From positions 90 through 64,089 of the forward strand of contig JAJECO010000040.1 of NCBI GenBank assembly GCA_022822005.1: a stretch of DNA of 64,000 nucleotides, written 5' to 3'. The notes beneath the pieces are model-generated. The model had not been told where the DNA came from. It did not search any database and saw only the letters and a program-made list of their open reading frames with translations. Below are positions 11,412 through 60,816 of the stretch, piece by piece; position 1 is the stretch's first letter; each line of letters starts with the position of its first letter. The stretch comes from Candidatus Poribacteria bacterium (GTDB lineage: Bacteria > Poribacteria > WGA-4E > PCPOR2b). The position numbers were made by a program, and so were the translations under genes.

Positions 11412-11446
11412 GCTATTGATATGAAAGTCTATTTTGGAGGTGTGCT

Positions 11447-13372: not shown

Positions 13373-13433
13373 AAGTCTATGACGTCAACAGGGCAGATAA
13401 AGAAGATAGGAATTACTTGCTTGGAGGTGCGCT

Positions 13434-31700: not shown

Positions 31701-32292
31701 GTCATCAAGCACCTCCTCCCGAGCTGAATCCGTTCGTTATGAAGGAGATATTAAGATTTTCAACGCGAAAAACACATCGAGCCTTCAGTTGAGATACGGT
31801 TATACGCTCCGGGATCAGAGCAACATCAATACCCAGATTGGTCAGAGCACCGCTCACGAACCTTCGATTAGCTGGAGTCATACGTGGAGAGAGACGACGA
31901 GAACCGCATTTGGTATCCGTCTCACACAGCGTGACGGGGAACGCAGCGGAATTGACACAACTTCGTTCATTGTTACACCAAATGTTAGCATCGATTACCG
32001 AGTGCGGATAGAAGGTGGGCTTCGTCTCCCCTTTGTGGGCAAGATTTCGCTGGAGCACGATTTAGACCTCAGCAACACGCTCTCAACGGTTATCCGTCGT
32101 GAACGGTTCGGAGCAAATAGGGAAGAACGGTCTGAGCGATATGAGACATCTCTGCGGGTTGGATACAGGTTGAGCGAGCGTCTCACTGCTGATATGAATC
32201 TCGGGTTGAGCTACAATAACGACCGCGTCGAAGAGGGGCGGGATTTCATTTCGGTGGCAAGTGCGTTGACGGTTCGTGGAGAGTTTGAGTAA
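25780..32292 (+). CDS. Giant (2170 aa) secreted protein. It has Gly/Tyr/Phe-rich low-complexity repeats, several DxDGDG Ca-binding (dockerin/EF-hand-like) motifs, an E/K-rich charged segment, and a C-terminal region of alternating-polarity strands suggesting an outer-membrane beta-barrel.
   Basis: Signal peptide MFRPPSLFILALIFATLHPPAAHA|EP (likely true start ATG 25801). GGYGGGYGGGYGSGFGGGFGGYGGGYGSGFGSG blocks at roughly aa 175-230, 275-300 and 755-800. C-terminus ...SVASALTVRGEFE. Single uninterrupted ORF. Confidence 0.65.
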   Translation: MNLLVTKMFRPPSLFILALIFATLHPPAAHAEPVLKDVSLTESYIQRRSLVLDPKEDIAPSEPAEPSKTQNFWAPTAATDPWKTPPPLTDKETEEQDLRLEMLTPYFESLRRWKNPDYLLDLRDLDDLRAGKREEQEKGIALPLQSNLQITGHKSVTVELHQTHYFGEGDINRYGGSYGGGSFGSGLDLGLTSSYSYDSFGSGFGGGYGGGYGGGYGSGFGGGFGGYGGGYGSGFGSGRSGVPRDTGINIRQTLEVGLHGRVGEHTHVEVDYNDSGGGYGGGYGGYSSGYGGGYGGMKEQKIRVWYEGTETSILKTLSFGDLTLNLPNARFLNVNRNLFGLEAVAQLGGARLTAFGSRSKGLSDIRRFRGESRRAAGGRGHQIPDANYVKERFYLIQLGEDELLHDAYRPIKHGSEEIYIDDNVAGNNQGGVRTGRGYFNLQQAGQDYNINYETGEIEFLSPISASYEIVVAYEYLGDGGGVVGSPGNVFADENGDGTVDEEGEEIGYVTIKGKSLRGTESRRVYSLGNRNISPRDYQIVIVRQGSGESFDTGSEEVPYIQIFGLDENGDGIVDPEFIDFDRGLLTFPDLRPFVIDDPQSPYFQFSDRLSNEAIYHENPRTTDAAYTIIVDYSFQSETYNVGLFVIPGSEKVRLNGRQLQRDVDYTMVYEVGSIRFFTELDEFDEIVVEFERTPFGGSLQQTVAGLWLEYSYVPKQKKVEEKKEQEFDRFERLIGTTDRPETDAMFETSDTTFGRRSSDGFGSRFGGSRFGGGQSGRFGGGFGGGGFGGYSGFGGRSRRGLRAGGSSYFSPTFQKGFSFATGYILNTGQKPSRIPDVNGAPSRLQAVNFNTTFGRDFNLAPLLNPLPLIAMRNFPLSINFSGETAFSHNNPNSVGLALIDSMEGTREASNTPTFKHHWRVSSLPVAEGVTLDNRALFRVLAKDRNESQAVGNYMRNREVPASVINPLATSTEERLIMEVGYDLTDVIEEWGGFSYGLSASGEDFSERQFLEIWFRVRGDSDVTLHIDLGVVSEDSDLDNRLDTEDLPPELEDINGDGKIDTLDLDLENLPASQKFRANGSLDTGEDVGWEYSAGFQPAQVGSSNTVLDTEDLNGDGVLDAIDAYLEIKIPLNDIPEEWLKRQHPNGWTFLSIPLSAATSEGTRLPNLGYVQHLRFWLQKNRSGAVTGKFEWASIEVVGVQWERGVVTRNDAITNDAAERFTVGTKDNFNFNDYHAAYEQIKDQDDFRKLHPFTEATYGYQQRQQREQTLTLDYVLLPESFGVTSRVLRGRQHGEGQDFSKHDTLRLWIYGDRSETTFVLRLAPSIRTGFRSSYRSAGPFENPQDQEEDINVFENLRDYYEYTRVIDFDGWKLIEIELSDLKRNEYPEAGLSGSIIPQTGQIDQLGTDLSIAETVDPDEPDGHPDGFVVRGTNSSQLSIKNIGGILIGLRNDTPREVGGEVWVNEIHLSNPIVRSGWARRANMDVKLGNLIKVNGGYAKQDKDFENSAGDTGRQRRHDLGYSTTSNDFNINSELSLFSWLPIRYSVREEESETESQRGSFSSFQSGKSKTKNRDFSATFNLRPLPVLGFALNRQDFWNERQGTELSDLYTGSFQFGLGSFFGLDAQFHHEDVETDSSTATDTSSSGSSFGSYYGRSRDEKVDSGSISLDISPFESFSLNPQYEVRRTLEKRDPNDQGGRSFSSFAQSTDPIEETEEPTAVPIFTIAEREHRLALNPRLNRDLLGIRPTLNNRVSLNENWFGDRKDARISANISLGLNVRPRVWFGWLFHEPEPEVPSEEGDGQETEKEGQEGNKEQSGEQSKPSEEFDSFEAETRLEESRQRQLDRLEQMGVDSDTIEDAENQRGDWIRRDKAEMARKLRERKSKGEEEEKKEAGIIQRSIESLGLNANVSLNNQDSLRGLDPGMRIADILQLPDEAEERTQSRQGTRYSFRTSVDPWSWASLGGNIDRSNNFTKSSSTSSRAESVRYEGDIKIFNAKNTSSLQLRYGYTLRDQSNINTQIGQSTAHEPSISWSHTWRETTRTAFGIRLTQRDGERSGIDTTSFIVTPNVSIDYRVRIEGGLRLPFVGKISLEHDLDLSNTLSTVIRRERFGANREERSERYETSLRVGYRLSERLTADMNLGLSYNNDRVEEGRDFISVASALTVRGEFE

Positions 32293-35402: not shown

Positions 35403-36215
35403 ATGCCCAAACTGGTTGATCCCGTCATCGCAGATCCGGATGACATGGAAGCACAGATCGAATGCTTCAAAACCCACGGTTATGTCATCCTTCCAGACCT
35501 ACTTTCACCCGATGAAGTCGACACCCTCAACGACGCCATCGATCGGGATCGGAAGACGAATCCGTTCATGTGGTTCTCAGGAACTTCACCCGACTACAAC
35601 TGCAATCTCTTGCTGACAGAACCCGCGTTTGAGATGAGCATCCGCCATGAAAGGCTGCTCCCACTTATCGGAGAACTGATGGGGGGGGCCATCTGTTTTG
35701 AGGAGCTTGCTGTGCGCCACCGTGGTGGAGAGGCTGAAGCGCGCGATACGGGATGGCACAGAGATCGTGGCTATTGGCCCGAACACCCCCTGAATCTCGA
35801 TTATCCGCAGGTTATCTACTACCTGAACGATGTGAACGAAACTACTCACTGTTTTTCTATCAGCCCGGAGCCGGCTGGCGGGGAAATCCTTGATGACAGA
35901 GACGCACATCTTGAACGCGGCGGCGTCCTCCATTTCTACGGCAGTGCAGGTTCGGCAATCCTTTTCAACTGCGCTACTTTACACGGCGTCACACTACGTA
36001 AAACCGATGAAGTGCGCCGTACCATTCAGGTCTATTATGGACATCCCAACCGCCGCTCCTTGAGCGAAGTGACGATGATGCCTCCGAACCTATGGCGAGA
36101 CCATTCAGACCCGGAAGTTCGGCGTTTCTATAGCAAGTTCAATCGGTATACGAAAGTAATGATGGACGGCCTCAGTATGCCCGATGATAGAGAACATTCG
36201 CTTCCCCAACTGTAG
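35403..36215 (+). CDS. Phytanoyl-CoA dioxygenase (PhyH) family Fe(II)/2-oxoglutarate-dependent oxygenase.
   Basis: 270 aa. HxD...H facial-triad pattern (GWHRDRG ... TLHGV). PhyH-like length. Confidence 0.75.
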   Translation: MPKLVDPVIADPDDMEAQIECFKTHGYVILPDLLSPDEVDTLNDAIDRDRKTNPFMWFSGTSPDYNCNLLLTEPAFEMSIRHERLLPLIGELMGGAICFEELAVRHRGGEAEARDTGWHRDRGYWPEHPLNLDYPQVIYYLNDVNETTHCFSISPEPAGGEILDDRDAHLERGGVLHFYGSAGSAILFNCATLHGVTLRKTDEVRRTIQVYYGHPNRRSLSEVTMMPPNLWRDHSDPEVRRFYSKFNRYTKVMMDGLSMPDDREHSLPQL

Positions 36216-38929: not shown

Positions 38930-39925
38930 TTATCGGTCAAGCTGTTTGACCCATCCCCATATCGTAAACTTTCTGCTTCTAGGTGAAACTGAAAAAGGTG
39001 AGTTAAACCATGCAGGATCACTGTCAGGCTGCGGATTATTGGTGAGATTTTGAGAATTGCCCCCATCGGCGTCCATCACGTAGATTTCGGCATTCCCATT
39101 CCTACCAGACACAAATACAATCCGGTTATTGTCAGGGGACCAGGAGGGAAATAAGTCATAAACGCCATTTTCAGTGAGTCTTTGTGTATTCTCCCCATTG
39201 GCATCCATCACGTAGATTTCATCAGTGGGCCAACCGCCTTTGTCAAGGACCCAATCCCTATCAGACGAGAATGCAATCCGGTTACTGTCAGGAGACCATG
39301 AAGGTGAACGGTCATTATGGCGATCATTGGTGAGGTTTCGCTGCTTACCCCCATTCGCATCCATCACGTAGATCTCAAAGTTTCCATCCCTGTTAGACGA
39401 GAAGGCAATCCGGTTACCGTCAGGAGACCATGAAGGTGAACTGTTATGACGGCGATTATTGGTGAGTCTACGCCGATTATCCCCATCGGCGTCCATCACG
39501 TAGATGTTCATGTTCAGGTCCCCATCCCTATTAGACACAAAGGCAATCCGTTTACCGTCAGGAGACCAAGAGGGGGCCCATTCATCAAAGTCATTGTTAG
39601 AAAGGTTGCGCTGATTCCCACCATCGGCGTCCATCACGTAGATTTGCCGGTTCCAATCCCTATCACTCCTCTCAGACACGAAGGCAATCCGTTTACCGTC
39701 AGGAGACCAAGAGGGGGACCTGTCATGAAAGTCATTCTTGGTGAGTCTTTGTAGATTCTCTCCATCGACGTCCATCACGTAGATTTCAAAGCGTATACCG
39801 TTCCAATCCCTATCAGACTCAAAGGCAATCTGTGTTTGTGCTTCAACGACTATTATCAGCGACGTTAGACTCAAGACTACAACACTAGCTAAAATCAAAT
39901 GGGCAAGACTATATTTTCGTTGCAT
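38930..39925 (-). CDS. Membrane-anchored/secreted PD40 (TolB-like WD40-like) beta-propeller repeat protein. Paralog 1 of 3.
   Basis: N-terminal signal/anchor MQRKYSLAHLILASVVVLSL. Six or more PD40 repeats (EIYVMDADGGNQRNLTNN...SPSWSPDGKRIAFVS). AAGGAGG SD. Confidence 0.8.
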   Translation of the reverse strand: MQRKYSLAHLILASVVVLSLTSLIIVVEAQTQIAFESDRDWNGIRFEIYVMDVDGENLQRLTKNDFHDRSPSWSPDGKRIAFVSERSDRDWNRQIYVMDADGGNQRNLSNNDFDEWAPSWSPDGKRIAFVSNRDGDLNMNIYVMDADGDNRRRLTNNRRHNSSPSWSPDGNRIAFSSNRDGNFEIYVMDANGGKQRNLTNDRHNDRSPSWSPDSNRIAFSSDRDWVLDKGGWPTDEIYVMDANGENTQRLTENGVYDLFPSWSPDNNRIVFVSGRNGNAEIYVMDADGGNSQNLTNNPQPDSDPAWFNSPFSVSPRSRKFTIWGWVKQLDR

Positions 39926-39992
39926 TTCCTATGCCTCCTTTGTTTTTAACGCGGTCTTTTATCCTTAAACACTATTCTCTAAATAATAGCAG

Positions 39993-40988
39993 TTATCGAG
40001 CACCCTGTTTGAGTTGTCCCCACATCGTAAACTTTTTGCCCGCGGGGGCAACGACAAAAACAGGAACAGACCATGCAGGATTACCATCATTCCTCGGATG
40101 ATTGGTGAGCTTTTGCGGATTTCCCCCGTCAGCGTCCATCACGTAGATCTCCCCTTGGTTATCCCTATAGGACGAGAAGGCAATGCGTGTGCCATCAGCC
40201 GACCATGAGGGTGACACGTCCCTATCGCGATTTTCAGTGAGTCTTTGCTGATTACCCCCATCGGCGTCCATCACGTAGATTTCATAATTTGCAAAGTCCC
40301 CCTTCCTATCGGATGAGAAGACAATGCGTGTACCATCGGGTGAGTCGTCATTTTGGCGGTTTTCAGTGAGCCTTTGCGGATTACCCCCATCGGCGTCCAT
40401 CACGTAGATTTCAGAAGTGAGGCCACTGTCGGCTATAAAGTGCCCATCCCTATAAGAGGAAAAGGCAATGCGTTTGCCATCAGCCGACCATGAGGGATGC
40501 TGGTCAGTACCAGGATTGTTAGTGAGTTTTTGCGGATTCCCCCCATTGTTGTCCATCACGTAGATTTCAAAGTTCACCTCCCTATCAGAGGAAAAGACAA
40601 TGCGTTTGCCGTCAGGAGACCATGCAGGAGAGTGATCAGAATTGGGATCATTAGTGAGGTTTCGCTGATTTTTCCCCTCCGCGTCCATCACATAGATTTC
40701 AAAAGTGGACCACACGCGGCCCTTAGGGACGTGCCCATCCCTATCAGACACAAAGGCAATCCGTGTGCCATCGGGCGACCATGAGGGTGCTAAGTCCCTA
40801 TCGGGGTGATTGGTGAGGTTTCGCTGATTTTTCCCATCATCGTCCATCACGTAAATTTCATAGTTCCTATCCCTATCAGACTGGAAGGCAATCTGTGCCT
40901 GTGTATCAGCGTCTACTACCAGTAACGTTAGCCCTAACATGACAACGACAGCTAAAATCAAATGTGCGAGATTGTATCTCCGTTCCAT
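39993..40988 (-). CDS. PD40 beta-propeller repeat protein. Paralog 2 of 3.
   Basis: Same architecture as paralog 1 (MERRYNLAHLILAVVVMLGL..., repeated EIYVMDADGGN / SPSWSADG). AGAGGAGG SD. Confidence 0.8.
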   Translation of the reverse strand: MERRYNLAHLILAVVVMLGLTLLVVDADTQAQIAFQSDRDRNYEIYVMDDDGKNQRNLTNHPDRDLAPSWSPDGTRIAFVSDRDGHVPKGRVWSTFEIYVMDAEGKNQRNLTNDPNSDHSPAWSPDGKRIVFSSDREVNFEIYVMDNNGGNPQKLTNNPGTDQHPSWSADGKRIAFSSYRDGHFIADSGLTSEIYVMDADGGNPQRLTENRQNDDSPDGTRIVFSSDRKGDFANYEIYVMDADGGNQQRLTENRDRDVSPSWSADGTRIAFSSYRDNQGEIYVMDADGGNPQKLTNHPRNDGNPAWSVPVFVVAPAGKKFTMWGQLKQGAR

Positions 40989-41100
40989 CCGTTATGCCTC
41001 CTCTGTTGTCAAATCGGTTTATATTTCCTTGGAGTGGATAGAGATCGGCTTGTGTTGGCAACCTTTTTCCAATTATAGTAGATCTTAGAATTAATGAGAC

Positions 41101-41182
41101 ACTCCAAACCGGTGCGGGGAGAAAACGCACCTACCGGGAGACGAAAGTGTTTATTTTTAGAATTCACCATAAGGTGACAACT
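41101..41182 (+). repeat. Family D ~85-bp element, plus orientation, solo copy.
   Basis: TAATGAGACACTCCAAACCGGTGCGGGGAGAAAACGCACCTACCGGGAGACGAAAGTGTTTATTTTTAGAATTCACCATAA. Confidence 0.65.
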
Positions 41183-41267
41183 CGGTTTATTATCGCATGA
41201 AGATCTCGCCTCTTCGTTCGCGTTTATGACCCAATCTCAACGCACGCTGTTTTCTCGATAATGGTAA

Positions 41268-42230
41268 TTATTGGTCAACGCCCTTGAGCCATCCCCACAT
41301 TATAAACTTCTTATAAGAGGGGGTAACTGAAAGAACAGCGTTATACCATGCAGGAGCTCCCTCATCCTCAAGATGATTGGTGATGTTTCGTGGATTCGCC
41401 CCATCGGCATCCATTACGTAGATGTCCGGATTAAAATCCCTCGTCCTATTCGACACGAAGGCAATGCGTTTACTGTCGGGCGACCATGAGGGTGAATAGT
41501 CCCTATCAGGATGATTGGTGAGGTTTCGCTGATTCCCTCCATCGGCGTCCATCACGTAGATATCTGTGCGAAGAGCCCCAGGTCCAAAGGCATCAAAGGC
41601 AATGTGTTTACCGTTAGGGGACCATGAGGGATTATTGTCATGAGTGTTATTAAAGGTGAGGTTTCGCCGATTGCTTCCATCGTCATCCATCACGTAGATG
41701 TCCATGTCCCCATCCGCCCTCCTAGGGAAAGCAAAGATAATGCGTCTACCGTCAGGAGACCATGAGGGATTATTGTGATTAAGGAGATTCTCAGTGAGGT
41801 TTAGCTGATTGTCCCCATCGGCATCCATTACGTGGATTTGTTCGTTCCGCACGAAGACAATGCGTTTACCGTCAGGAGACCATGAGGGCTCCCTATCATC
41901 ACCAAGATTATTAGTGAGATTTCGCTGATTATCCCCATCGGCGTCCATCACGTAGATTTGCCGGTTCCCATTCCTATCATTCCTATCAGAACTGAAAACA
42001 ATGCGTTTACCGTCAGGAGACCAAGAGGGCTCCCTATCATCACCAAGATTGTTAGACAGGTTTAGCTGATTGCCCCCATGGTTGTCCATCACATAGATTT
42101 CCCAGTTCCAATCCCTATCAGACATGAAAACAATTCGTGCTTGTGCGTCAGTGGTTACCATCAGCGGCGTCAGACTCAAGACTATAATGCTAGCTAAAAG
42201 GATATGTGTCAAATTGTATCTCCGGTGCAT
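41268..42230 (-). CDS. PD40 beta-propeller repeat protein. Paralog 3 of 3.
   Basis: Start moved to ATG 42230 (MHRRYNLTHILLASIIVLSL), which matches the paralog N-termini and has a GGAAGGA SD. Repeated IYVMDADGDNQRNLTNN / SPSWSPDGKRIVF. Confidence 0.8.
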   Translation of the reverse strand: MHRRYNLTHILLASIIVLSLTPLMVTTDAQARIVFMSDRDWNWEIYVMDNHGGNQLNLSNNLGDDREPSWSPDGKRIVFSSDRNDRNGNRQIYVMDADGDNQRNLTNNLGDDREPSWSPDGKRIVFVRNEQIHVMDADGDNQLNLTENLLNHNNPSWSPDGRRIIFAFPRRADGDMDIYVMDDDGSNRRNLTFNNTHDNNPSWSPNGKHIAFDAFGPGALRTDIYVMDADGGNQRNLTNHPDRDYSPSWSPDSKRIAFVSNRTRDFNPDIYVMDADGANPRNITNHLEDEGAPAWYNAVLSVTPSYKKFIMWGWLKGVDQ

Positions 42231-42692
42231 TTGACATTCCTTCCCTGTTTTCAAATCGGTTGTCTATCCTCTGGATTTGATAGTGGTCAGATTGGGGGCA
42301 ATCCCTTTACAATTATAATTATAACATAGACACAAATTCCTACTGGGAGTTCTCAAGTAAATTAGGTTCTGTTGACATTTACCAATTCGTAGGTTGGGTT
42401 GAACGGTTAAACGAGAATCCTTATCAAGTGCAATAGAGGTTTGGTCGATCAACAACACCTGCTTATAGACAGATAGAGTGAAATCCAACAAAGTTTTTCA
42501 TCAGGAAGTCCCCTTTTCGAAAAGCATTTTCGTAAACGTGATCTTTTGTACCATCCCGATTGAATCGGGATGATCCCCGCCTACAAACTAACAGTTTGCG
42601 CTACATGTGTCAGATTAGCCGATGATTACAGCGTTTGCTCAATTAGCGACATCAAAATGTCAACACGTCCTAGCAACTCGGTTTATTAATAT

Positions 42693-43842: not shown

Positions 43843-45474
43843 TCAAGCAAGGTCTTGCGCCCAATAATACTGTCCATACAGGTGAATCAGGTTTTTCGGA
43901 TTGTCGGCTAGCAGATCACCAAAGGTTATCTTCTGAATCTCACGCTTCGGTCCCGGTGCATCGTCATGATACGCAGCGCGGCGTGCCTGCCCCTCAGTAG
44001 GGAAAGCAATCCATTGATCGTGATCATCTCGGAATGCGTAGACCGTTCCGCCCGCTGGCGTGTGCACCTCGACGTCCGCATCTTGGAACGGACGGATGCG
44101 CGTTTCAGAGGCATCGTGATTTTCCAGAAACTCGATCCAAGCGGCACGCATCCGTTCAGCGACATCGGGATGGGAATCCACAATGTTATGCTGCTGATCA
44201 GGATCGGTTTTCAGGTTATACAGTTCGGAAGGCATCCCCTGCGGTGCACATAGGTAAGCCCACTCATCATCGGTGATGGTGCTGGGTTCAACGTTCCGGT
44301 CAGAACCAACCCAACCGTCGAAAGTGGCACCCTCTACCGGCGTGTAGCCGGTCGTCCCTGCGCTGGGCGGGAATCGACTTGAGAAGGCGTAATCGTGTAT
44401 CTTTGCTGTGTCTCCACTCATCAAGGGGAGGAATGAGGTCCCTTGGATGTGTGACGGTGTTGAGATTCCACGGAAGTCCAAGATTGAGGGTAAGATATCA
44501 GGGGGTTGGACAACCCCGTGAATCCGTTCACCTGCTCCCAATCCATCGGGGTGATGAATCAAGAGGGGGATCCGGACGGTGATTTCGTAGAGCTTACCGA
44601 GTTCGGCTCCCGGCTTGCCTTGTAGGTCATGGTCTCCGAACAGGTGCCCGTGGTCGGAGGCCCAGATGATGAGTGTATTCTTAAAGAGCCCCAACCGTTC
44701 TGCCAGATCCAGAAATGCGCCCACCCACCGATCCGTCAGTGTGACATTGCCGGCATAGAGTGCACGGAGATGCGCCGCCTCCGCCTCGGACATATATGTT
44801 GGGCGACCGTATTCCGGGTACAACATCCGATCGCCATCGTAGTCGGGATCGGCGTATAGCGCATAGTCGTACCAAGGGCAGTCGAACGGTTCATGGGGAT
44901 CCCACATATCGACATAGAGGAAAAACGACTCTTGGTTGTGGTTGGTCTCCAGCCAATCCATCGCTTCCGACATCCCCCGTCCAATGCAGAACTCACGATC
45001 GAATTGACGGGCGGCGTGGTTGCGGAGGTAGTTTTGTAGACCTGAGATATTGCGGATTTTATGGGGTTGTGCCCCCAGTTGAATGTCCAGAGAGGGGTCA
45101 GTTATCCATGGATCACCCTTCTGGCTATGCACAAAACTGAGTCCCCCGAAGCCACGTGTGTAGTTATAATCGTGCATTGCAAGCATTGGGGTATCCCAGA
45201 TCATTTGGGTATGCACACCGTCCGCAGACAGGAGCTGCCCCCAAGTCACATCTCCAGGGCTCAAGGGCTGCCACCCGCGAGAAGGGAAACCGAAACGCCC
45301 GGTCGCCAAGTCCCACCGGTTAGGCACCGTCGGATAGGAGGCTGCATAGAATTGCTCAAAAAGGGCTGCGTGCTGGGCAAACCCATCCAGATTGGGCGTC
45401 TGAATCCAAGTGTTGCCGTAGCATCCCAAGTGGTCCCTGCGAAAGGTATCGTTCATGATAAAGATGACGTTCAT
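43843..45474 (-). CDS. Sulfatase-fold (alkaline-phosphatase superfamily) enzyme with Thr at the formylglycine position. Likely cytoplasmic.
   Basis: N-terminus FIMNDTFRRDHLGCYGN...TPNLDGF...ASYPTVPNRWDLATGR aligns to the sulfatase (C/S)xPxR signature, but reads TVPNR. DHGH region conserved. No signal peptide. Confidence 0.75.
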   Translation of the reverse strand: MNVIFIMNDTFRRDHLGCYGNTWIQTPNLDGFAQHAALFEQFYAASYPTVPNRWDLATGRFGFPSRGWQPLSPGDVTWGQLLSADGVHTQMIWDTPMLAMHDYNYTRGFGGLSFVHSQKGDPWITDPSLDIQLGAQPHKIRNISGLQNYLRNHAARQFDREFCIGRGMSEAMDWLETNHNQESFFLYVDMWDPHEPFDCPWYDYALYADPDYDGDRMLYPEYGRPTYMSEAEAAHLRALYAGNVTLTDRWVGAFLDLAERLGLFKNTLIIWASDHGHLFGDHDLQGKPGAELGKLYEITVRIPLLIHHPDGLGAGERIHGVVQPPDILPSILDFRGISTPSHIQGTSFLPLMSGDTAKIHDYAFSSRFPPSAGTTGYTPVEGATFDGWVGSDRNVEPSTITDDEWAYLCAPQGMPSELYNLKTDPDQQHNIVDSHPDVAERMRAAWIEFLENHDASETRIRPFQDADVEVHTPAGGTVYAFRDDHDQWIAFPTEGQARRAAYHDDAPGPKREIQKITFGDLLADNPKNLIHLYGQYYWAQDLA

Positions 45475-45660
45475 GGAGGTGCATACTCCCTTTTTTATAC
45501 ATCTACTGAGCCGAGCCGTACTCGCACCTGTGCAGTGGATTTGTTAATCCACTGCGAGTTGCTTTGAATCCCGATTTATCGGGGCGTTGATTTTCTTACT
45601 TTGGTTCCCATTCGCCTAAACGGTAGCCGATTCTGCAAATGGCAACTTGCTTTACCACTA

Positions 45661-46191
45661 TCAAACCTTTGTCAATGCAGCGGTAATCTTTTCAACGATA
45701 CCATCTGCACGACCACGGATTTGATCAGGTGTAAGGCTCTGGATCGGGTGGTCAACGGTGGTTGGATGGAAATCGCGATAACCGAGCGATTTCGCTTGAA
45801 CTTCCCCGGCAGCGAAGAATACATCGGAGCAGATCGATACGCTGGGGATGCCACGTTCTTCTAAAGCGGTTCCGTCGTGCACACTGCACGATATACAGGA
45901 ACCTCAGTCTGCAAGCCCTTCCACCACGAAGTCGCACCGATCGGCGAGTTCTGTGATTAGGTCTTGCGGTGCGGGACGTGCAAAGGTTGGTTTTGTTACA
46001 CGCACCACATCGACAAGGTCAAAATTCTCACGCATCAGCTCTTCAACACGATCGAGGAAGATATCGCTGCCGTTTTTACTGATGTTCAGTAAGCCCATCA
46101 CTTTGCCGTTGAGGTCATTGAGGCGCGGAGCAAGATATTTCTCCGACGGGTTGTTTGGAGCGACTGGATCGAGTAAAGTTGTATTTGCCAT
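45661..46191 (-). CDS. Selenoprotein, UGSC-motif family (putative thiol/selenol redox protein). The in-frame TGA at 45906..45904 is read as selenocysteine.
   Basis: ATG 46191 with AGGAGG SD (6-nt spacer). ...VVEGLAD-TGA-GSCISCSVHDGTALEER continues in the same frame to the stop at 45661. The U-G-S-C motif is created by the TGA. A SECIS-like hairpin lies immediately 3' of the TGA. The ORF caller reports two abutting same-frame ORFs (45904..46191 and 45661..45882). Confidence 0.7.
45868..45903 (-). promoter_or_regulatory. Bacterial SECIS-like stem-loop immediately downstream of the in-frame UGA.
   Basis: mRNA reads UGA-GGUUCC-UGUAUA-UCGUGCA-GUG-UGCACGA-C-GGAACC: a 6-bp lower stem, asymmetric internal loop, 7-bp upper stem, and a G/U-containing apical loop. 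Confidence 0.6.
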
Positions 46192-46319
46192 TGTAAGCCT
46201 CCTATGGATTTAAGAAATGTATGTAGATAGAATAGCAATTTCGATGGCGCCTGTCAACATCTATTTCCGTTGAATCTCTTCGGCAGTGTGGTATAATACG
46301 CGAAGCACAAAATGCAGAA

Positions 46320-47093
46320 TTGACAACGACTTCGGAGCCCCTTTTCGCTCAAATGATAACGACAAAAGAACTGACCAAACGTTTCGGCAAACTTGTCGCC
46401 GTGGATAGCCTGACCATGCAGGTCAAAGCAGGTGAATTGTTCGGTTTTTTGGGTCCCAATGGTGCCGGGAAGACTACAACTATCAACATGCTAACCGGTT
46501 TGATCCGTCCAACCTCCGGCACCGCGACGATTTGCGATTATGATGTCAGGACGCAGGCATCACAGGTGAAAGCGATAACGGGCTTAATGCCCGACACACC
46601 ACACCTCTATGAGACGTTGACAGGGAGGCAGTTTGTTCGCTTCATTGCAGATCTCTACGAGATTGATCCTAAACGATCAGGACGGCGGATGGAGGAGTTG
46701 CTGGAGGCGTTTGATCTTACTGACGCCGCAGACTCACTAATCAAAAGCTACTCCTACGGCATGCAGAAAAAGATCCTTTTGACAGCGGTGTTGGTGCATG
46801 AGCCGCGTGTTCTGTTTCTCGATGAACCGACAAGCGGCCTTGACCCGAAAAGTGCTCGCATCGCAAGGGATCTCTTGCGTGAGTGCTGCGATCGTGGATG
46901 CACAGTGTTCATGACTACGCACGTTCTTGAGATTGCAGAGCGGGTGTGCGATCGGATAGGTATCATTAACGAAGGAAAGCTTGTTGCGGTGGGAACGATG
47001 GAGGAGCTGCGTCAGAACCGCACAACGACGGACCTGAGTTTGGAGGACATCTTTCTGGAACTAACGTTAGATAGTGAGGATGAGACTGTTTGA
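46320..47093 (+). CDS. ABC transporter ATP-binding protein (ABC-2 type). No permease gene adjacent.
   Basis: Walker A GPNGAGKTT, signature YSYGMQKK, Walker B LFLDEPTSGLD. ATG 46353 (MITTKELTKRFG) is the alternative start. Confidence 0.8.
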   Translation: MTTTSEPLFAQMITTKELTKRFGKLVAVDSLTMQVKAGELFGFLGPNGAGKTTTINMLTGLIRPTSGTATICDYDVRTQASQVKAITGLMPDTPHLYETLTGRQFVRFIADLYEIDPKRSGRRMEELLEAFDLTDAADSLIKSYSYGMQKKILLTAVLVHEPRVLFLDEPTSGLDPKSARIARDLLRECCDRGCTVFMTTHVLEIAERVCDRIGIINEGKLVAVGTMEELRQNRTTTDLSLEDIFLELTLDSEDETV

Positions 47094-47147: not shown

Positions 47148-47912
47148 CTATTCCCTTTCTGCTTGTGTGTTAGCAACTTTCAATCTATCCAAAACATGCT
47201 CAAAATTAGCAATAATAGGCTTATAGTAAATATGATGCGCCTCTTCATATTTAAGACCATCTGATGCGGACTCCCCAATTACATCAAACATCATGTCTAC
47301 CAGTGGATCTATATGTTCAGGATGTTTTCGGGCAGCTCTCATAAGTCTCACATACAAGGAGAGAGGCATTCCAAATATAGGTTTCTTGATAAAACCTTCT
47401 TTAGATTCATCTTTGCCAATAGACCACATATAGACAGTATATTCAATTTTGTTATTTACCTTTTTTGCTTCGGCAATCAGACCTGAATATATTCCTATTG
47501 ATGATGAGGCCGAGTAAAGCCCTTTGTAACGAGGCATCCATTTAGCAATATGTGTATTTTCTCGCATGAGCATCAATAGACTATCACCTATCTCTAATGT
47601 GACAAAGTCCTGCCCCATTGAATTCCAGTGATTCTTACCTCCAGGAATACAAAATGTTACTGTATCCTTATCAATGTTTGGAATGCCTTCTATGAGTTTA
47701 TCAACATTGAAAGTAAGGTCAGTAACATATCCATTTGTTACTGGGTTATGGACGTATTGCCTTTTAACGAGTGTCCCAATAAAAACCAATTCAGTTCGCT
47801 TCATGTATGCAGAGAAGGGTTCCTTGACTATACTTGATCCTACGGCGAGATTCCCACAAACAAACAGTAAGGTAAGGGGCAGGGTTAATATTACAAAACG
47901 TTTGGCGTTCAT
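47148..47912 (-). CDS. Hypothetical secreted protein, sitting in a visibly AT-richer segment.
   Basis: Signal peptide MNAKRFVILTLPLTLLFVCGNLAVGS. 254 aa, no recognisable domain. Local base composition is clearly lower in GC than the flanks. Confidence 0.55.
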   Translation of the reverse strand: MNAKRFVILTLPLTLLFVCGNLAVGSSIVKEPFSAYMKRTELVFIGTLVKRQYVHNPVTNGYVTDLTFNVDKLIEGIPNIDKDTVTFCIPGGKNHWNSMGQDFVTLEIGDSLLMLMRENTHIAKWMPRYKGLYSASSSIGIYSGLIAEAKKVNNKIEYTVYMWSIGKDESKEGFIKKPIFGMPLSLYVRLMRAARKHPEHIDPLVDMMFDVIGESASDGLKYEEAHHIYYKPIIANFEHVLDRLKVANTQAERE

Positions 47913-48049: not shown

Positions 48050-48604
48050 TTAATTCAGTGGAGGCGTGTGGGGATCTGTCAAACGGTGTGCTTTTCGCAC
48101 CAGCTCCGGATTAATAGAAAACCGCTTGGCGGCATCAATCAGATGATTCACGTGATCGTGCATATCCTTTTCCATCTGGGAGATACGGCCCAACAGATAG
48201 GGTCTACCGCTCTGATAGATTGCATCTTTGATGGTCGAAACCAACTCTGCATAGATTGCGTCTGACTCGCCGGTCTCAAGCGCAACAGCGATCTCAAATG
48301 CGTCATTGAGAGTAACCTGTTTTGCACTTACACGCTCTTCATATTCACTCAATGTGTTGTTAATCCGTTCGATAGATACATCGGCTAACTGAGGACCGGG
48401 GGCATCTAGCCCAAAGGTCTGGGCACAGAGCGAACGTCCAAAACCGACGAGGAGATGGTGCTGCCACTCCTCTGCGCTCATCTCCTGCCAAAATCGCGCA
48501 ATTCGTTCATCGACATCGCCCAATCGGACAGATAGCGTCGCGTATAGTTTTGCATGTCTCAGTTCAATCTCTTGGCATAAATCAAAGGTTTCTGCTAAAG
48601 TCAT
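48050..48604 (-). CDS. Hypothetical protein, possibly a ferritin-like diiron four-helix-bundle domain.
   Basis: ExxH-type pairs (ELRHAKL, EEWQHH, EKDMHDH). Start moved to ATG 48604 (MTLAETF) with GGGAGGGTGAG SD. Lies directly downstream of the antiporter gene. Confidence 0.45.
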   Translation of the reverse strand: MTLAETFDLCQEIELRHAKLYATLSVRLGDVDERIARFWQEMSAEEWQHHLLVGFGRSLCAQTFGLDAPGPQLADVSIERINNTLSEYEERVSAKQVTLNDAFEIAVALETGESDAIYAELVSTIKDAIYQSGRPYLLGRISQMEKDMHDHVNHLIDAAKRFSINPELVRKAHRLTDPHTPPLN

Positions 48605-48639
48605 AGCTAACTCACCCTCCCTTCCACAGCATTTCATCC

Positions 48640-50631
48640 TCATGTATCCTTTCCGAGAGCCAATTGGTGTCGTAGGGAATAAACAGCGTGTGAGGATTGC
48701 CCGTATTCACCAAATCGCAGCTCCAACTCTTCCAGACTTTCCAACGAGCCAACCACTGTAACCCAATCACCAGTCTGGAACTCTGTATAACCGTGCGTAA
48801 TTATGATATGCCCAGCACGGCGAGCCGATAGGATTAAGGCATCGGACGGCAGACGCAGATCCCGGACAGCCATACCCGCCAAGTTGGGATTACGGACCTC
48901 CAAATCAATAATATCGTAGTTCTCCTCCATCCCAAGTAACAGTGATATTGATGATGGGGCCCGAACAAAATGGTCCAGTAAACTAATGATTGCCGTGGAG
49001 GGTCTGACAGTAAACGCGCCCAATTCACGGAAACGATCATAATTTGCCAAATGGTTCAGTCGCACAACGAGGTTATCTGTTCCAAAATGCTCATAGGTAA
49101 GTTCACAGATACGGTAATTTTCTTCGTCAGACAGCATGGCGACAACGGCACCGGCTTCTCCTACACCAAATGTTTGCAATTCATCTAACGAAAGACCAGG
49201 CATCGGACGGGCATCAAAATACGAACTTGTCACATTTTCTATCTCTTCCGTTTGACTGTATGCGACCTTTACCTCCCAATCATGTGCACGCAGCTGCCGA
49301 GCAAGCGCCAGCGATTGACTATCCGAACCAAAAATGATGGCACTGTGTATCTGATCTGGCTCAGATTTCTTGGCACGTGGACGCGCTTCCTTCACCCAGA
49401 CGAGCGCCCATTTGAAAAGGGTAGGTCCGATAAGCTGATTCACCACGATGGTCGAAATCATCAGTGTGGCAAAAGCTGGGCCCCACGCCGGAAACGCACC
49501 TCCGACCTCTTTAGCCAGTCCCAATCCAACGCCGGCTTGTGTGATATACGCCATCCAGCTGACTCTGTTGTACGTCATTGGGTCTCCAGCCAGAACGCCG
49601 CCGGTCAAAGAGCCGATGAATATCACTACAAAACGAACCGCAACCAACAGTAACGTAATTGGCCAAATATCTGCCAAGATGTCCAAAGTAAGTGAGGCAC
49701 CGGTCAGTGTGAAAAAGGCGATATAAACCAGCGGTCCAACCTCGTGCAACGTCTTCAGGAACTCATCCCGCGTGTCGGTCCTGTTAATCAGCCAGAAACT
49801 CCCAATCATGCAAACGAGCAGTGGCTCAATAAACACTTCAAACGGTAGGATAGCATGGGTGGCGTGGCGAATCCAAACGGATACGGCAAAGACAGCATAG
49901 CCTGTCAGTAAGATGCCGACTATCTTTGCACCGTGATTGATTCGGCTTGACAGAATCCGTTGTAAAATTCTTCCGACGACATATCCGGCCGCCACTGCTA
50001 CCGCCAACTCAGCGAATAACAGAGCGATGAAGGTTAGATTAAACCGAAGTCCGGTGAGAAGGGCATCTGCGATAGACGCATTGACAGCAAACAGGATGAT
50101 GACAAGGACATCCGTAACAACAGTAACACCCATGACTGTTTGCGTGAATGGTCCTTTGGCACGGAGTTCTTTTATGATCGCAACGGCGGAGGAGGGAGAC
50201 CGAGCGACCAAAATCGCACCGGCAAGGATAGCAATGGCAATTCGACCTGTGACTGGAAGGCCACGCATAAATGGCATGAAATCTGCCAACACAAAAACGG
50301 TCAAGCTGCCTAAGATGAAGGTGCTGACGACAATACCAATACTTACCAATTTAATGCTCTTAAATCGGCTTCTCAGCTCCTTCAAGTACAGTTCACTTCC
50401 GGCGACAAAGGCAATAAATGCCAAGGAGAGCTCATCCACAAAGCGTAACCGCTCGGTCGCCTCTACAGAAATGAAGTCGAATATAAAGGGACCTGCGATT
50501 ATACCGGTAAAGAGAAAGCCACTGATCAAAGGGAGTTTAAATTTGGCAAAAAACTGTCCAATCTGTTTTGAAGCCAACGCGATGAGAACAAAACCGGCGA
50601 CAAACATGAACAGGTTTTGATAGGCTGCCAT
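48640..50631 (-). CDS. Monovalent cation:proton antiporter-2 (CPA2/Kef-type) with C-terminal RCK (TrkA-N/TrkA-C) regulatory domains.
   Basis: 663 aa. About 12 TMs with the Na_H exchanger fold pattern. C-terminus has IIFGSDSQSLALARQL (Rossmann GxGxxG-like) and a TrkA-C region. Confidence 0.85.
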   Translation of the reverse strand: MAAYQNLFMFVAGFVLIALASKQIGQFFAKFKLPLISGFLFTGIIAGPFIFDFISVEATERLRFVDELSLAFIAFVAGSELYLKELRSRFKSIKLVSIGIVVSTFILGSLTVFVLADFMPFMRGLPVTGRIAIAILAGAILVARSPSSAVAIIKELRAKGPFTQTVMGVTVVTDVLVIILFAVNASIADALLTGLRFNLTFIALLFAELAVAVAAGYVVGRILQRILSSRINHGAKIVGILLTGYAVFAVSVWIRHATHAILPFEVFIEPLLVCMIGSFWLINRTDTRDEFLKTLHEVGPLVYIAFFTLTGASLTLDILADIWPITLLLVAVRFVVIFIGSLTGGVLAGDPMTYNRVSWMAYITQAGVGLGLAKEVGGAFPAWGPAFATLMISTIVVNQLIGPTLFKWALVWVKEARPRAKKSEPDQIHSAIIFGSDSQSLALARQLRAHDWEVKVAYSQTEEIENVTSSYFDARPMPGLSLDELQTFGVGEAGAVVAMLSDEENYRICELTYEHFGTDNLVVRLNHLANYDRFRELGAFTVRPSTAIISLLDHFVRAPSSISLLLGMEENYDIIDLEVRNPNLAGMAVRDLRLPSDALILSARRAGHIIITHGYTEFQTGDWVTVVGSLESLEELELRFGEYGQSSHAVYSLRHQLALGKDT

Positions 50632-53039: not shown

Positions 53040-53520
53040 TGCGGTTTCTCCTTCCTGTTTTTTGGATTCTTCTCAACACCTTTGCCATGCTATGTGCAAA
53101 ATAGATGCCAAAATGTGCCAGGATGAGAGTATACAACCTCTTAGCCTCTGTCTTACACCGGAGACAATCACGCCGAAACCGCTCTGTTTACTGCTTTCAC
53201 GCGCTTCACAGAATTACTCTGAAATCGGATGGATACCACTAATTGATATGAATAGGGTCTGGGAAAAAAACTGAAAGGGGTGAAACGGATGGGAGCGTCA
53301 TTTTGAGATAGATGGCTCGCAAACCCTTTTAAATTCAAGGTCCGGGGCGAAAGAAACAGATGTTTCTGAAAGAAACAAATGTTTCACCCCTTGGAAAGCG
53401 CAGGAAGCAGATTCTAAAAAAAATAAATGCCTTCCCAATCAAATCGTGTTATAATCAGTTTTCGTAAGTTCCGATGGAGTTTGTATTCCGCATTTCGACA
53501 GTGTCCCCAGAGGGAGAGCC

Positions 53521-55215: not shown

Positions 55216-56046
55216 ATGACCCAACAAGAACAACAAACCTTCTTTGAAAAAGAGGGCTACCTTGTCGTAGAGAATCTACTATCGCCAGAAGAATTGGTGG
55301 AATGTCAGGCTGAAATTCTACGCCTGCACAAACTTGCCGCCGAACTGGAAGCGAAGGGCGAAAATGGTCACTTTCAACGTGAGCCTTACGCTAAAAACGA
55401 GGCACAGGAAATGACGACCCACGGTGTCGCGGATGATAGGCTTCCGGTGCTAAGAAAGGCTGAAAACACCCGCCAATATTCGGACGTATTTCGTCGCCTC
55501 TCAGTCCATCCGAAACTAATCCAAGTTGTGCAAAAGCTTCTTGGACCCGATCTCTTGCTGTTCAGAAGTACACTGATGTTCAAGCCGGCATTCCACGGCT
55601 CCGCACACGGCATCCATCAGGATTCCGCGTATTGGCCCATGGAGCCGCCGAAGTTGGTAACGGTGAGCATTGCACTCAACGACGCCACACCTGAAAATGG
55701 ATGTTTTCAGGTGATTCCCCAGAGCCACAAATGGGGGCTTCAGTCTTGGGGACATATCGCTCGCGAACAGGATGAATCTCTGACAGACCATGAGGATCGC
55801 GATTTTTCAGGACAGATTGAGGTTCCCCTTTCTGCGGGGAGTGCGCTATTCTTCCACAGTCTCATGGCGCACGGCTCTGGCCCGAATCGCTCACCAAATC
55901 CGAGGAACACCGCACTTTACGCATACTTCTCGCCGCAGGTCCGTTATGTGCCACGCAACGGCAAGCCGGAACGGAAGTCGTTCCCAGTCGCCGCCGGGCT
56001 TGGTGGCAAAGAGGAATTGACACTCGTTGCCGAAAGTGCTGAGTAG
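55216..56046 (+). CDS. Phytanoyl-CoA dioxygenase (PhyH) family Fe(II)/2OG oxygenase.
   Basis: HQDSAYWP ... FFHSLMAHGSGPN (HxD...H triad). 276 aa. AAGGAGA SD. Confidence 0.8.
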   Translation: MTQQEQQTFFEKEGYLVVENLLSPEELVECQAEILRLHKLAAELEAKGENGHFQREPYAKNEAQEMTTHGVADDRLPVLRKAENTRQYSDVFRRLSVHPKLIQVVQKLLGPDLLLFRSTLMFKPAFHGSAHGIHQDSAYWPMEPPKLVTVSIALNDATPENGCFQVIPQSHKWGLQSWGHIAREQDESLTDHEDRDFSGQIEVPLSAGSALFFHSLMAHGSGPNRSPNPRNTALYAYFSPQVRYVPRNGKPERKSFPVAAGLGGKEELTLVAESAE

Positions 56047-58537: not shown

Positions 58538-58735
58538 TAAAATAACCTGATTTAACCAATGGTGCTAGTTTGCGACTGTTGATAGCGTGAAACGTGAAGA
58601 GAAGAATAGAACACAGAGACGCTAGGAAATTCCCTTAAAAAACTTTGCGCCGTTGCGTCATTGCGTTAAGTATTCTTCATGTACTAATGAATCAATGAAC
58701 CATGTATTTAGGGGATGAAGCTTGGAGATATAACC

Positions 58736-59578
58736 ATGACATCAACACAACTCAACGACCAACAGATGGCATTTTTTGATCCGTTTGGGTTCCTGTCCTT
58801 TCCGGGATTGTTGGCTGATTGCGCCGATAAAATAATCGACGAGTTTGAAGCCATCTGGAATTCCCACGGTGGTGGACACCACGGCGCGCTGCACGACGGG
58901 GTGAACCGTTCTTGCATCTTTCCATTCCCGGATCGAAGTGAATATCTCAGTTCCATACTGGATGACCCACGTATTCACGACATAGCCGCCAGCATTTGTG
59001 GCGATGACTTTAACTATACAAGTGGCGACGGTAATTTCTACGCAGGTGACACCCGTTGGCACTCTGACGGGTACGACGGGCACCGACTGATGAGTATCAA
59101 GATCGCTTTCTACCTCGATCCGCTGACCCGCGACACCGGCGCGCTCCGCATTATCCCCGGTAGTCACCGTGTTGGTGAACCTTACGCCGATACGATTGAA
59201 CGCGATATCCGTGAGAGCGGGCAGATTTGGGGGATGTCCGGTCCTGAGGTTCCTGCACTTATTTTGGAGACAAATCCCGGCGATATTGTCGTTTTCAACC
59301 ACAACCTCAAACACGCTGCGTTTGGCGGTTCTGAGCGACGACGGATGTACACAATGAACTTCTGCCGTCGCTACCCGGAAGAGCGACTTGGCGAGTTGCG
59401 CGATAAACTGGGCAAAGAGGCACGGTTCTGGATTGATCGTATCCACGGCGAAGCGATGATCCGCACAGCGGGACCGGAGCGGATGGTACACTTGGAGCAG
59501 GTGATGGAGAACGACACCCATCTCGCTGAATTACATCAGGAACTAAGAGAGACAATGACAGAACCGTCACGTGGATGA
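58736..59578 (+). CDS. PhyH family Fe(II)/2OG dioxygenase, tandem copy 1.
   Basis: WHSDGYDGHR ... NHNLKHAAF (HxD...H). GGAGATA SD. Confidence 0.8.
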   Translation: MTSTQLNDQQMAFFDPFGFLSFPGLLADCADKIIDEFEAIWNSHGGGHHGALHDGVNRSCIFPFPDRSEYLSSILDDPRIHDIAASICGDDFNYTSGDGNFYAGDTRWHSDGYDGHRLMSIKIAFYLDPLTRDTGALRIIPGSHRVGEPYADTIERDIRESGQIWGMSGPEVPALILETNPGDIVVFNHNLKHAAFGGSERRRMYTMNFCRRYPEERLGELRDKLGKEARFWIDRIHGEAMIRTAGPERMVHLEQVMENDTHLAELHQELRETMTEPSRG

Positions 59579-59734: not shown

Positions 59735-60577
59735 ATGGAGTCAACACGACTTAACGACCAACAGATGGCATTTTTTGATACGTTTGGGTTCCTGTCCTTT
59801 CCGGGATTATTGGCTGACTGCGCCGATAAGATTATTGACGAGTTTGAAGCTGTCTGGGCTGTCCACGGGGGCGGGCATAACGGTGCGCTGCACGACGGGG
59901 TGAATCGTTCTTGCATCTGCCCGTTCCCTGATCTCAGTGAGTACCTCAGTTCACTACTGGACGATCCGCGCATCCACGACATCGCTGCCAGTATTTGTGG
60001 GGATGACTTTAACTATACAAGCGGCGACGGCAATCTCTACGCCGGGGACACCCGTTGGCACTCCGACGGTTACAATGGAAACCGGCTGATGGATATCAAG
60101 ATCCCTTTCTACCTCGATCCGCTCACCCGCGATACGGGTGCACTTCGTGTGATCCCCGGCAGTCACCGCGTTGGCGAGCCTTATGCCGACACGATTGAAC
60201 GCGATATTCGTGAGAGCGGCCAGATCTGGGGGATGTCCGGTCCTGAAGTCCCGGCACTCATTCTGGAGACGAACCCCGGCGATATTGTCGTCTTCAACCA
60301 AAACCTCAAACACGCTGCGTTTGGCGGCTCTGAGCGACGCCGGATGTACACAATGAACTTCTGCTCTCGTTACCCCGAGGAACGGCTTGGGGAATTGCGT
60401 GACATGTTCGCTAAAGAAGCACGGTTCTGGATTGATCGCATCCACGGCGAAGCGATGATACGCACCGCAGGACCCGAGCGGATGGTACACTTGGAGCAGG
60501 TGATGGAAAATGACACCCACCTCGTTGAATTACATCGGGAACTAAGACAGACGATGACAGAGCCGTCACGTGGATGA
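59735..60577 (+). CDS. PhyH family Fe(II)/2OG dioxygenase, tandem copy 2 (about 90% identical to copy 1).
   Basis: Near-identical DNA over about 800 bp to 58736..59578. GGAGACGC SD. Confidence 0.8.
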   Translation: MESTRLNDQQMAFFDTFGFLSFPGLLADCADKIIDEFEAVWAVHGGGHNGALHDGVNRSCICPFPDLSEYLSSLLDDPRIHDIAASICGDDFNYTSGDGNLYAGDTRWHSDGYNGNRLMDIKIPFYLDPLTRDTGALRVIPGSHRVGEPYADTIERDIRESGQIWGMSGPEVPALILETNPGDIVVFNQNLKHAAFGGSERRRMYTMNFCSRYPEERLGELRDMFAKEARFWIDRIHGEAMIRTAGPERMVHLEQVMENDTHLVELHRELRQTMTEPSRG

Positions 60578-60633: not shown

Positions 60634-60816
60634 ATGAAATTTCTTGTTAGAAGATACTACTCAGGTTTTTGTACTGATGAAGTTGAAGCAGAAGATGAGG
60701 ATGCTGCTCTTAATATTGCTAGAAATCTGCCCATAGATGAAGGCGAAATTCTTTCGACCTTAGAGGATTGGCGGTACGCCGATGAGGTCGAAGTTGCTGA
60801 AGATGATGAAAACTAG
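60634..60816 (+). CDS. Small, extremely acidic hypothetical protein (60 aa, net charge about -14) overlapping the start of the HNH nuclease gene.
   Basis: GGAGGAG SD 6 nt before ATG 60634. MKFLVRRYYSGFCTDEVEAEDEDAALNIARNLPIDEGEILSTLEDWRYADEVEVAEDDEN. Sits at the AT-rich island boundary. Confidence 0.45.
   Translation: MKFLVRRYYSGFCTDEVEAEDEDAALNIARNLPIDEGEILSTLEDWRYADEVEVAEDDEN

Follow-up and report, generated by a model that had tools for sequence, protein, structure and literature searches.

A UGSC-family selenoprotein gene in Candidatus Poribacteria, with an in-frame UGA codon and a SECIS-like hairpin

We analyzed a stretch of 64,000 nucleotides from Candidatus Poribacteria bacterium (GenBank assembly GCA_022822005.1, contig JAJECO010000040.1, positions 90 to 64,089), referred to here as the window. 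Positions 45661..46191, read on the minus strand, very probably form one gene for a UGSC-family selenoprotein of 176 residues, with selenocysteine (Sec) inserted at an in-frame UGA by way of the hairpin that follows it. The evidence consists of matches to curated family models that run across the UGA, full-length relatives with Cys at the same position, conservation of the UGA and of the frame beyond it across phyla, and a lack of synonymous variation confined to the hairpin.

Gene structure and family membership

A first-pass annotation, made from the sequence alone, had described two abutting open reading frames (ORFs) in the same minus-strand frame, split by nothing but a TGA, of which the upstream part had an AGGAGG Shine-Dalgarno sequence and the downstream part had none. 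We confirmed both points. The upstream ORF (46191..45904, minus strand) starts with ATG, encodes 95 amino acids, and is closed by the TGA at 45906..45904; past this codon the frame stays open for 80 more codons, up to the TGA at 45663..45661, giving one frame of 176 codons. The AGGAGG lies at 46203..46198, and the sole start candidate of the downstream part is a GTG at 45884..45882, which falls within the hairpin loop and lacks a Shine-Dalgarno sequence. Read through, the junction becomes ...DFVVEGLAD-U-GSCISCSVHDGTALEE... (in short form, ...EGLAD-U-GSCISCSVHDG). The protein then has a UxxCxxC motif, with Cys residues at +3 and +6 from the Sec.

The junction motif had also been likened to that of the UGSC selenoprotein family, and the curated profile hidden Markov models (HMMs) place the joined protein in this family. 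We scored the 176-residue sequence with Cys placed at the TGA codon. It exceeded the cut-offs of both NCBIfam NF041046, "UGSC family (seleno)protein" (161 bits versus 125, model positions 2-147 of 147), and Pfam PF24696, "UGSC" (169.3 bits versus 25, model positions 2-171 of 172), in each case over the full length of the model. Both matches span the TGA. Thus, the two ORFs are the halves of one domain.

The first report of the "UGSC-containing protein", a functionally uncharacterized selenoprotein, concerned Hyphomonas neptunium and marine metagenomes (PMC1976440). With 255 Sec and 21 Cys sequences and the motif UxxC, UGSC ranks among the most abundant selenoprotein families in the Global Ocean Sampling data set (PMC2398784), and a 2026 review counts it among selenoproteins that were nearly all found bioinformatically and whose functions are largely uncharacterized (PMC13188914). 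The window protein agrees with the family as described (NF041046/PF24696; Zhang & Gladyshev 2007-2008) in having U-G-S-C at the same aligned position, in its size (about 175-180 amino acids in the family), and in the selenocysteine insertion sequence (SECIS) placed right after the UGA; Sec forms are far more numerous than Cys forms in the family, and nothing essential sets the window copy apart. It does come from Candidatus Poribacteria, a phylum unmentioned for the UGSC family in the literature that we searched.

A word-index homology search recovered 5 fragments only. To collect homologues, we used an exhaustive HMMER search with the 95-residue N-terminal fragment as query against the 50%-identity representatives of a 1.8-billion-protein library; it returned 942 cluster representatives at E <= 1e-3. 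About 140 of the best 150 of these 942 are 90-135 amino acids long, with a match that ends at their own last residue, equivalent to window codon 95. Three of the best 150 are full-length proteins in which a Cys comes next: P0130 and P0058 (both DCGSC) and P0049 (SCGAC). A search seeded with P0130 brought in about 70 full-length Cys forms, several of them from Actinomycetota and named "UGSC family (seleno)protein" by NCBI. When 27 of these Cys forms, all full-length and with GDCGSC, were aligned with the two window fragments, the Cys fell exactly into the gap between ...GLAD and GSC..., and the G, the S, and the second C of GDCGSC formed near-invariant columns. Homologues with Cys at the TGA codon, for which the first-pass annotation had suggested looking, thus exist.

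Conservation of the UGA and of the frame beyond it

We scanned one genome per species for UGSC loci, with a two-sequence alignment as seed, and obtained 57 loci. All but one (L059, which gave no motif match) have a readable motif; together with two metagenome contigs (L001 and L002), these 56 loci make up a set of 58 gene copies from at least five phyla. The closest are two Candidatus Poribacteria metagenome-assembled genomes (MAGs; JAJDUM010000063.1 and OZ244825.1), at 96% protein identity, and the others come from further Poribacteria, Thermoanaerobaculia and other Acidobacteria, Acidimicrobiales, Burkholderiaceae (Betaproteobacteria), Alphaproteobacteria, and one deltaproteobacterial MAG.

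All 58 copies have TGA at the aligned codon, and GSC[IT][ST]C comes next; with the window included, TGA stands at the Sec codon in 59 of 59 distinct sequences. The retention of both the codon and the motif excludes a sequencing error, given the many independent assemblies, as well as a lineage-specific pseudogene. Nor do the homologues stop at the TGA, a possibility that had been raised beforehand along with sequencing error: a conserved open frame continues beyond it in the 58 copies. Between the window and one close relative (L005), there are 15 synonymous and 4 nonsynonymous changes after the UGA, compared with 20 and 1 before it. By these counts, the frame after the UGA evolves like the frame before it, under purifying selection.

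Recoding is a property of this gene and not of the genome's code. TGA serves as the ordinary stop in 14 of the 40 window ORFs, and none of the other 39 contains an internal stop; thus, the code is standard and the recoding gene-specific.

A six-frame scan of the 64 kb, looking for TGA codons with a long open stretch on either side, gave 31 candidates and no other credible case. The other 30 either fall in noncoding frames within other genes or precede genes that are themselves complete. A "C-U" at 53073-53075 was rejected as a Sec codon, since the ferritin ORF after it covers the whole Pfam model on its own.

The hairpin as a probable bacterial SECIS element

Directly after the UGA, the RNA reads GGUUCC-UGUAUA-UCGUGCA-GUG-UGCACGA-C-GGAACC (45903..45868, minus strand). 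The first-pass annotation had drawn this segment as a two-stem hairpin, and it folds as drawn, with a minimum free energy (MFE) of -17.1 kcal/mol and a centroid energy of -16.7 kcal/mol. The consensus model of the bacterial SECIS (bSECIS) by Zhang & Gladyshev, as summarized in PMC13188914, has an apical loop of 3-9 nt on an upper stem of 4-16 bp; one of the first two loop nucleotides is G, usually with G or U after it, the UGA-to-loop spacing is 16-37 nt, and the MFE is -7.5 kcal/mol or lower. With its 3-nt GUG loop, 7-bp stem, 19-nt spacing (6 + 6 + 7), and MFE, the window hairpin fits all four bSECIS constraints. Its loop is among the shortest that the model permits. As in the fdhF-type SECIS of Escherichia coli, the stem-loop is part of the coding sequence and lies immediately 3' of the UGA; no bulged U like that of the fdhF element is evident in the window hairpin.

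A single hairpin sequence is no proof of structure; here it is the comparison of related sequences that supplies it. We tested codon use in the 96 columns whose majority residue is common to at least 30 of the 59 distinct sequences. Only four of the 96 are written with a single codon, and these four are consecutive: codons +5 to +8 after the UGA, TCG (55/55), TGC (59/59), AGT (52/52), and GTG (35/35), which form the 5' arm and loop of the hairpin. In contrast, Cys99 is encoded by TGT 33 times and by TGC 26 times, and the neighboring Gly, Leu, Ala, and Pro residues use three to six codons each. Since the absence of synonymous variation is confined to codons +5 to +8, it points to selection on the RNA and not only on the protein.

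The folds of the relatives agree with this. Across 37 distinct sequences, the inner stem is paired in 95.8% of cells, and the sole change inside it, a synonymous CAC-to-CAT, turns a G-C pair into G-U and so keeps the pair. RNAalifold retained 5 inner-stem pairs, with no compensatory pairs among them. When 35 distinct 48-nt segments were folded, 33 had the apical hairpin in their MFE structure, and the MFE values of the relatives are -10.3 to -23.7 kcal/mol. Loop sequences vary: the window has G-U-G, a second clade of Poribacteria has G-U-A, and the copies from Burkholderiaceae and Alphaproteobacteria have U-G-U-A-C. Pairing of the outer stem amounts to 59.9% across phyla, with some compensatory changes (columns 9/40: U-A 13, C-G 6, A-U 1); lower stems differ by lineage, being for example GGGUC/GACCC in Acidobacteria. 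Of the SECIS architecture proposed at the outset, then, the inner 7-bp stem-loop stands, conserved across phyla, but the outer 6-bp stem does not hold in general and is lineage-specific. Judged by sequence comparison, that stem is real in the window's clade, and its register is not fixed across phyla.

The bases of the SECIS core double as codons for S-C-S-V-H-D, and most Cys forms have S-A-A-T-V-A-D in its place. The peptide itself therefore may be partly dictated by the SECIS.

Selenocysteine machinery and alternative readings

Evidence on the Sec machinery is indirect and comes from relatives. A related TARA scaffold (L001), which belongs with the second Poribacteria clade, carries a UGSC gene whose product is 66% identical to the window protein. 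The scaffold also encodes SelD, 5 kb away (TIGR00476, 347 bits versus a cut-off of 125), and this selD has its own in-frame UGA, in the N-terminal motif MKKKKIRLTETVKCAG-U-ASKLAPGEL, that is, ...KCAG-U-ASK.... Poribacteria MAGs are also reported to encode group 4 hydrogenases that contain Sec (PMC13582414).

The selD gene as called on the scaffold (L001:3845-4831) was started after this UGA; the stretch L001:4771-4891 (minus strand) holds ATG...KCAG-TGA-ASKLAPGEL.

Several results weigh against the reading of the UGA as Sec by means of a SECIS. Pfam scans of the 40 ORFs in the 64-kb window revealed no selA, selB, or selD, and ARAGORN found no tRNA, hence no tRNA-Sec, in the same stretch. No Rfam SECIS family matched, whether over the whole window at gathering thresholds or over 45400-46400 at E <= 10. 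The fold of the window hairpin, taken alone, barely beats shuffled sequences (z = -1.74, with 15 of 200 shuffles equally stable). Across the 37 distinct sequences, moreover, no pair of the inner stem shows a double compensatory change, so that classical covariation is absent and the evidence for inner-stem pairing is the invariance of synonymous sites and the G-C to G-U change.

Were the TGA a genuine stop, the locus would be a pseudogene or would encode a 95-residue N-terminal product, with a decaying remnant as the downstream frame. Public gene callers do output exactly the 95-residue product, and most database relatives are about 95 amino acids long, but in each of the 58 related copies, from several phyla, the frame of 80 codons past the TGA remains open, and a remnant would not stay open in lineages at 42-49% protein identity to the window. 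The downstream part also has conserved residues (HP[IV] and E-x-x-G) in common with the full-length Cys forms, its changes between close relatives are mostly synonymous, and both family HMMs need both halves; a genuine stop is very unlikely on these grounds. A different possibility is that the UGA is read through, though not as Sec, either by genome-wide reassignment to Trp or Gly or by near-cognate or Cys insertion at a leaky stop, with the hairpin only stimulating the event. Hairpins close to a stop codon can in general promote such read-through, and the lack of Sec machinery in the 64-kb window would fit this possibility. Standard use of TGA in the window, where 14 of 40 ORFs end in this codon and no other ORF contains it, argues against reassignment; moreover, the Cys forms have an invariant, catalytic-type Cys where the UGA stands, as is characteristic of Sec/Cys pairs, the loop, stem, and spacing of the hairpin agree with a SelB-type bSECIS, and a relative encodes SelD beside its own UGSC copy. 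We consider this kind of read-through highly improbable.

The two parts could also be a split gene, translated as two polypeptides that assemble afterward, the second starting from the GTG in the hairpin loop, and some gene callers do give a downstream product of 72-73 amino acids from a loop ATG or GTG. However, the loop start codon has no Shine-Dalgarno sequence before it and lies inside the 7-bp stem-loop; in the Burkholderiaceae and alphaproteobacterial copies the loop codon is ACG, which is not among ATG, GTG, and TTG. A split would, in addition, remove the very residue that corresponds to the invariant Cys of the full-length relatives, and we give it next to no credence. A single 176-codon gene whose UGA is read as Sec is the reading that we adopt, with high confidence.

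Predicted fold and proposed mechanism

We modeled the Cys homologue P0130, which is 35% identical to the window protein, with AlphaFold2 from a 31-row alignment. The model (predicted local distance difference test score [pLDDT] of 93.9, predicted template modeling score [pTM] of 0.86) is a small alpha/beta domain of five beta-alpha units, in which the Sec-equivalent Cys99 of P0130 sits between strand 3 (residues 91-97) and the N terminus of helix 3 (residues 100-115). The predicted fold of the UGSC family is flavodoxin/Rossmann-like and not thioredoxin-like. Earlier literature called a thioredoxin (Trx)-like fold "likely" and noted that the protein is sometimes fused to an "Unknown_1" domain (PMC2398784); the P0130 model does not show a thioredoxin fold. 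A sequence search of the PDB gave coiled-coil noise only. The UGSC protein nonetheless shares with thioredoxin-fold oxidoreductases (Trx-like, Prx-like, and SelW-like) a U/CxxC at the N terminus of a helix after a beta-strand, and a redox role is expected. This placement of U/CxxC is the classic redox arrangement.

For the decoding route, with SelB binding and selenium insertion, we infer the steps known for the bacterial Sec pathway. Codon 96, the UGA, would be decoded as Sec: the stem-loop would be bound by SelB-GTP-Sec-tRNA(Sec), which would deliver Sec to the ribosome in place of release factor 2, and translation would continue to the true stop at 45663..45661. As for the redox chemistry and the substrate, the product would presumably be a selenol/thiol redox protein, with U96 as the nucleophile that attacks a substrate or the disulfide of a partner. 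U96 and C99 would form a selenenylsulfide, which would be resolved by C102 or by a thioredoxin-like partner.

The UGSC protein may also be remotely similar to selenoprotein B of the glycine, sarcosine, betaine, and D-proline reductases. The window protein had a match to TIGR01917 far below the cut-off (E 0.047, 12.6 bits versus 602.2, model positions 324-377). Among 31 family members, weak NCBIfam matches were found to GrdB (14, best E 2.7e-4), GrdF (11), TIGR01918 (10), PrdB (4), and GrdH (4). The selenoprotein B matches, at about 13-20 bits versus 602, fall on the Sec-bearing region (about model positions 324-404 of 431), and the Sec of GrdB, which we take to be near residue 350, would coincide with the aligned position. 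GrdB carries UxxCxxC (PMC13188914), as does the UGSC protein. The UGSC protein differs from selenoprotein B (GrdB, GrdF, GrdH, and PrdB; TIGR01917/TIGR01918/TIGR04483) in having less than half its length, and the UGSC-bearing organisms are not Stickland fermenters. No grdA-, grdE-, grdC-, or prdA-type genes were present among the scanned window ORFs, where the neighbors encode a sulfatase, a HAD hydrolase, and an ABC ATPase. We offer homology of UGSC to selenoprotein B as a weak lead, that is, as a hypothesis suggested by sequence similarity and not as a result.

Genomic context and a partner gene

The coordinates of the gene and its sequence elements are collected in Table 1. Two promoter-like sites were found near the UGSC gene, compared with 1.4 expected by chance, and the TTGACA/TATTCT site listed in the table is a consensus match that carries in itself no evidence of function.

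Table 1. Features of the UGSC gene and its surroundings in the window
Feature	Position	Strand	Basis or remark
UGSC-family selenoprotein coding sequence, complete	45661..46191	minus	176 codons + stop; single frame, family matches
Start codon ATG	46191..46189	minus	read from sequence
In-frame UGA, probable Sec codon (codon 96, U96)	45904..45906	minus	first residue of U-G-S-C-I-S-C
True stop codon TGA	45663..45661	minus	read from sequence
SECIS-like hairpin, full, as in this organism	45868..45903	minus	fold centroid -16.7 kcal/mol
Outer stem GGUUCC/GGAACC	45903..45898 with 45873..45868	minus	RNA fold
Conserved SECIS core, stem UCGUGCA/UGCACGA and loop GUG	45875..45891	minus	comparative conservation
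Shine-Dalgarno sequence AGGAGG	46198..46203	minus	6 nt upstream of ATG, read from sequence
Promoter-like TTGACA, 17-nt spacer, TATTCT, with TG before the second hexamer	46229..46257	minus	10/12 consensus matches

In the window's own Poribacteria clade (18 loci), the UGSC gene lies upstream of genes for a sulfatase (543 amino acids) and a HAD hydrolase on the same strand and is divergent from an ABC ATPase gene. The second Poribacteria clade has other neighbors, a TPR protein and a ClpB-like gene, and neighborhood clustering revealed no UGSC partner that is conserved across Poribacteria.

Outside this phylum, a protein of about 475 amino acids is encoded directly beside the UGSC gene in 25 of 25 non-Poribacteria loci (among L032-L059). 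Its gene, of about 1.4 kb (for example, L048:1568-2998), has the orientation of the UGSC gene in Proteobacteria and Acidimicrobiales, whereas in Acidobacteria the two genes diverge. The protein matches no Pfam or NCBIfam family; it has an N-terminal CPTC with weak thioredoxin similarity and an RPGCG motif. Unlike all 25 of these loci, the window locus has no such adjacent gene, and the partner is absent from the window as a whole and from the Poribacteria flanks. It may correspond to the "Unknown_1" domain of the 2008 paper. More speculatively, UGSC could be a stand-alone, flavodoxin-like relative of the Sec domain of selenoprotein B that, with the 475-residue partner, forms a new selenium-dependent reductase pair in aerobic bacteria from the sea and from sponges, the pair being unlinked, or the partner replaced, in Poribacteria. 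We regard this proposal as tentative and, on balance, rather doubtful.

Several further observations concern the surroundings of the UGSC gene. The 186-nt spacer between its stop and the sulfatase start contains two palindromic hairpins (45531-45584, with 11-bp and 6-bp stems), a possible terminator or attenuator. The sole Rfam hit, to CRISPR-DR32 at 45561-45597, was rejected as chance level; it overlaps the second of these hairpins. Two minus-strand ORFs nearby, 47148-47912 (254 amino acids) and 48050-48643 (197 amino acids), match no Pfam or NCBIfam family, and the former is missing from the otherwise syntenic L061. On the TARA scaffold, an IS605 OrfB/TnpB (Cas12f-like) gene (L001:8798-9874) is directly upstream of the UGSC gene.

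Other features of the window

The window also holds several groups of paralogous genes. Three tandem paralogues on the plus strand (9468-15356; 647, 641, and 640 amino acids) each combine a DUF6259 region with a C-terminal dockerin domain, and three consecutive paralogous genes on the minus strand (38930-42254; 331, 331, and 328 amino acids) encode PD40/WD40-like beta-propellers. Four genes of the PhyH type (phytanoyl-CoA dioxygenase family) lie on the plus strand at 35403-36215, 55216-56046, 58715-59578, and 59735-60577, two of them adjacent. A plus-strand ORF of 2170 amino acids (25780-32292) has marginal matches only, to SprA_N (E 5e-6, below the cut-off) and to one dockerin repeat. A Type ISP restriction-modification enzyme with coupler, N6-methylase, and Type_ISP_C domains is encoded at 891-3983 (minus strand), and an HNH endonuclease gene is found at 60782-61651.

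Annotation and significance

The first-pass annotation had anticipated that gene callers would mis-annotate the UGSC gene, and public assemblies indeed give either a 95-residue fragment or two fragments. In three of them (L060-L062), a gene for the identical 95-residue product stands alone, with no call downstream; on two other contigs, the gene is split into pieces of 96-97 and 72-73 amino acids, both of which match PF24696. The UGSC gene is thus a concrete case of a selenoprotein that is cut or split in public calls, for which Sec-aware pipelines are needed.

The UGSC family has been known since 2007 and is catalogued with curated HMMs, and the window gene, as a typical member, will not surprise a specialist. 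What is new is the predicted non-thioredoxin fold, the weak link to selenoprotein B, and the linked partner gene in other phyla, all of which are starting points for work on function. For the organisms themselves, the gene would mean that these Poribacteria, as sponge symbionts, use selenocysteine, and it would add them to one of the most abundant marine selenoprotein families.

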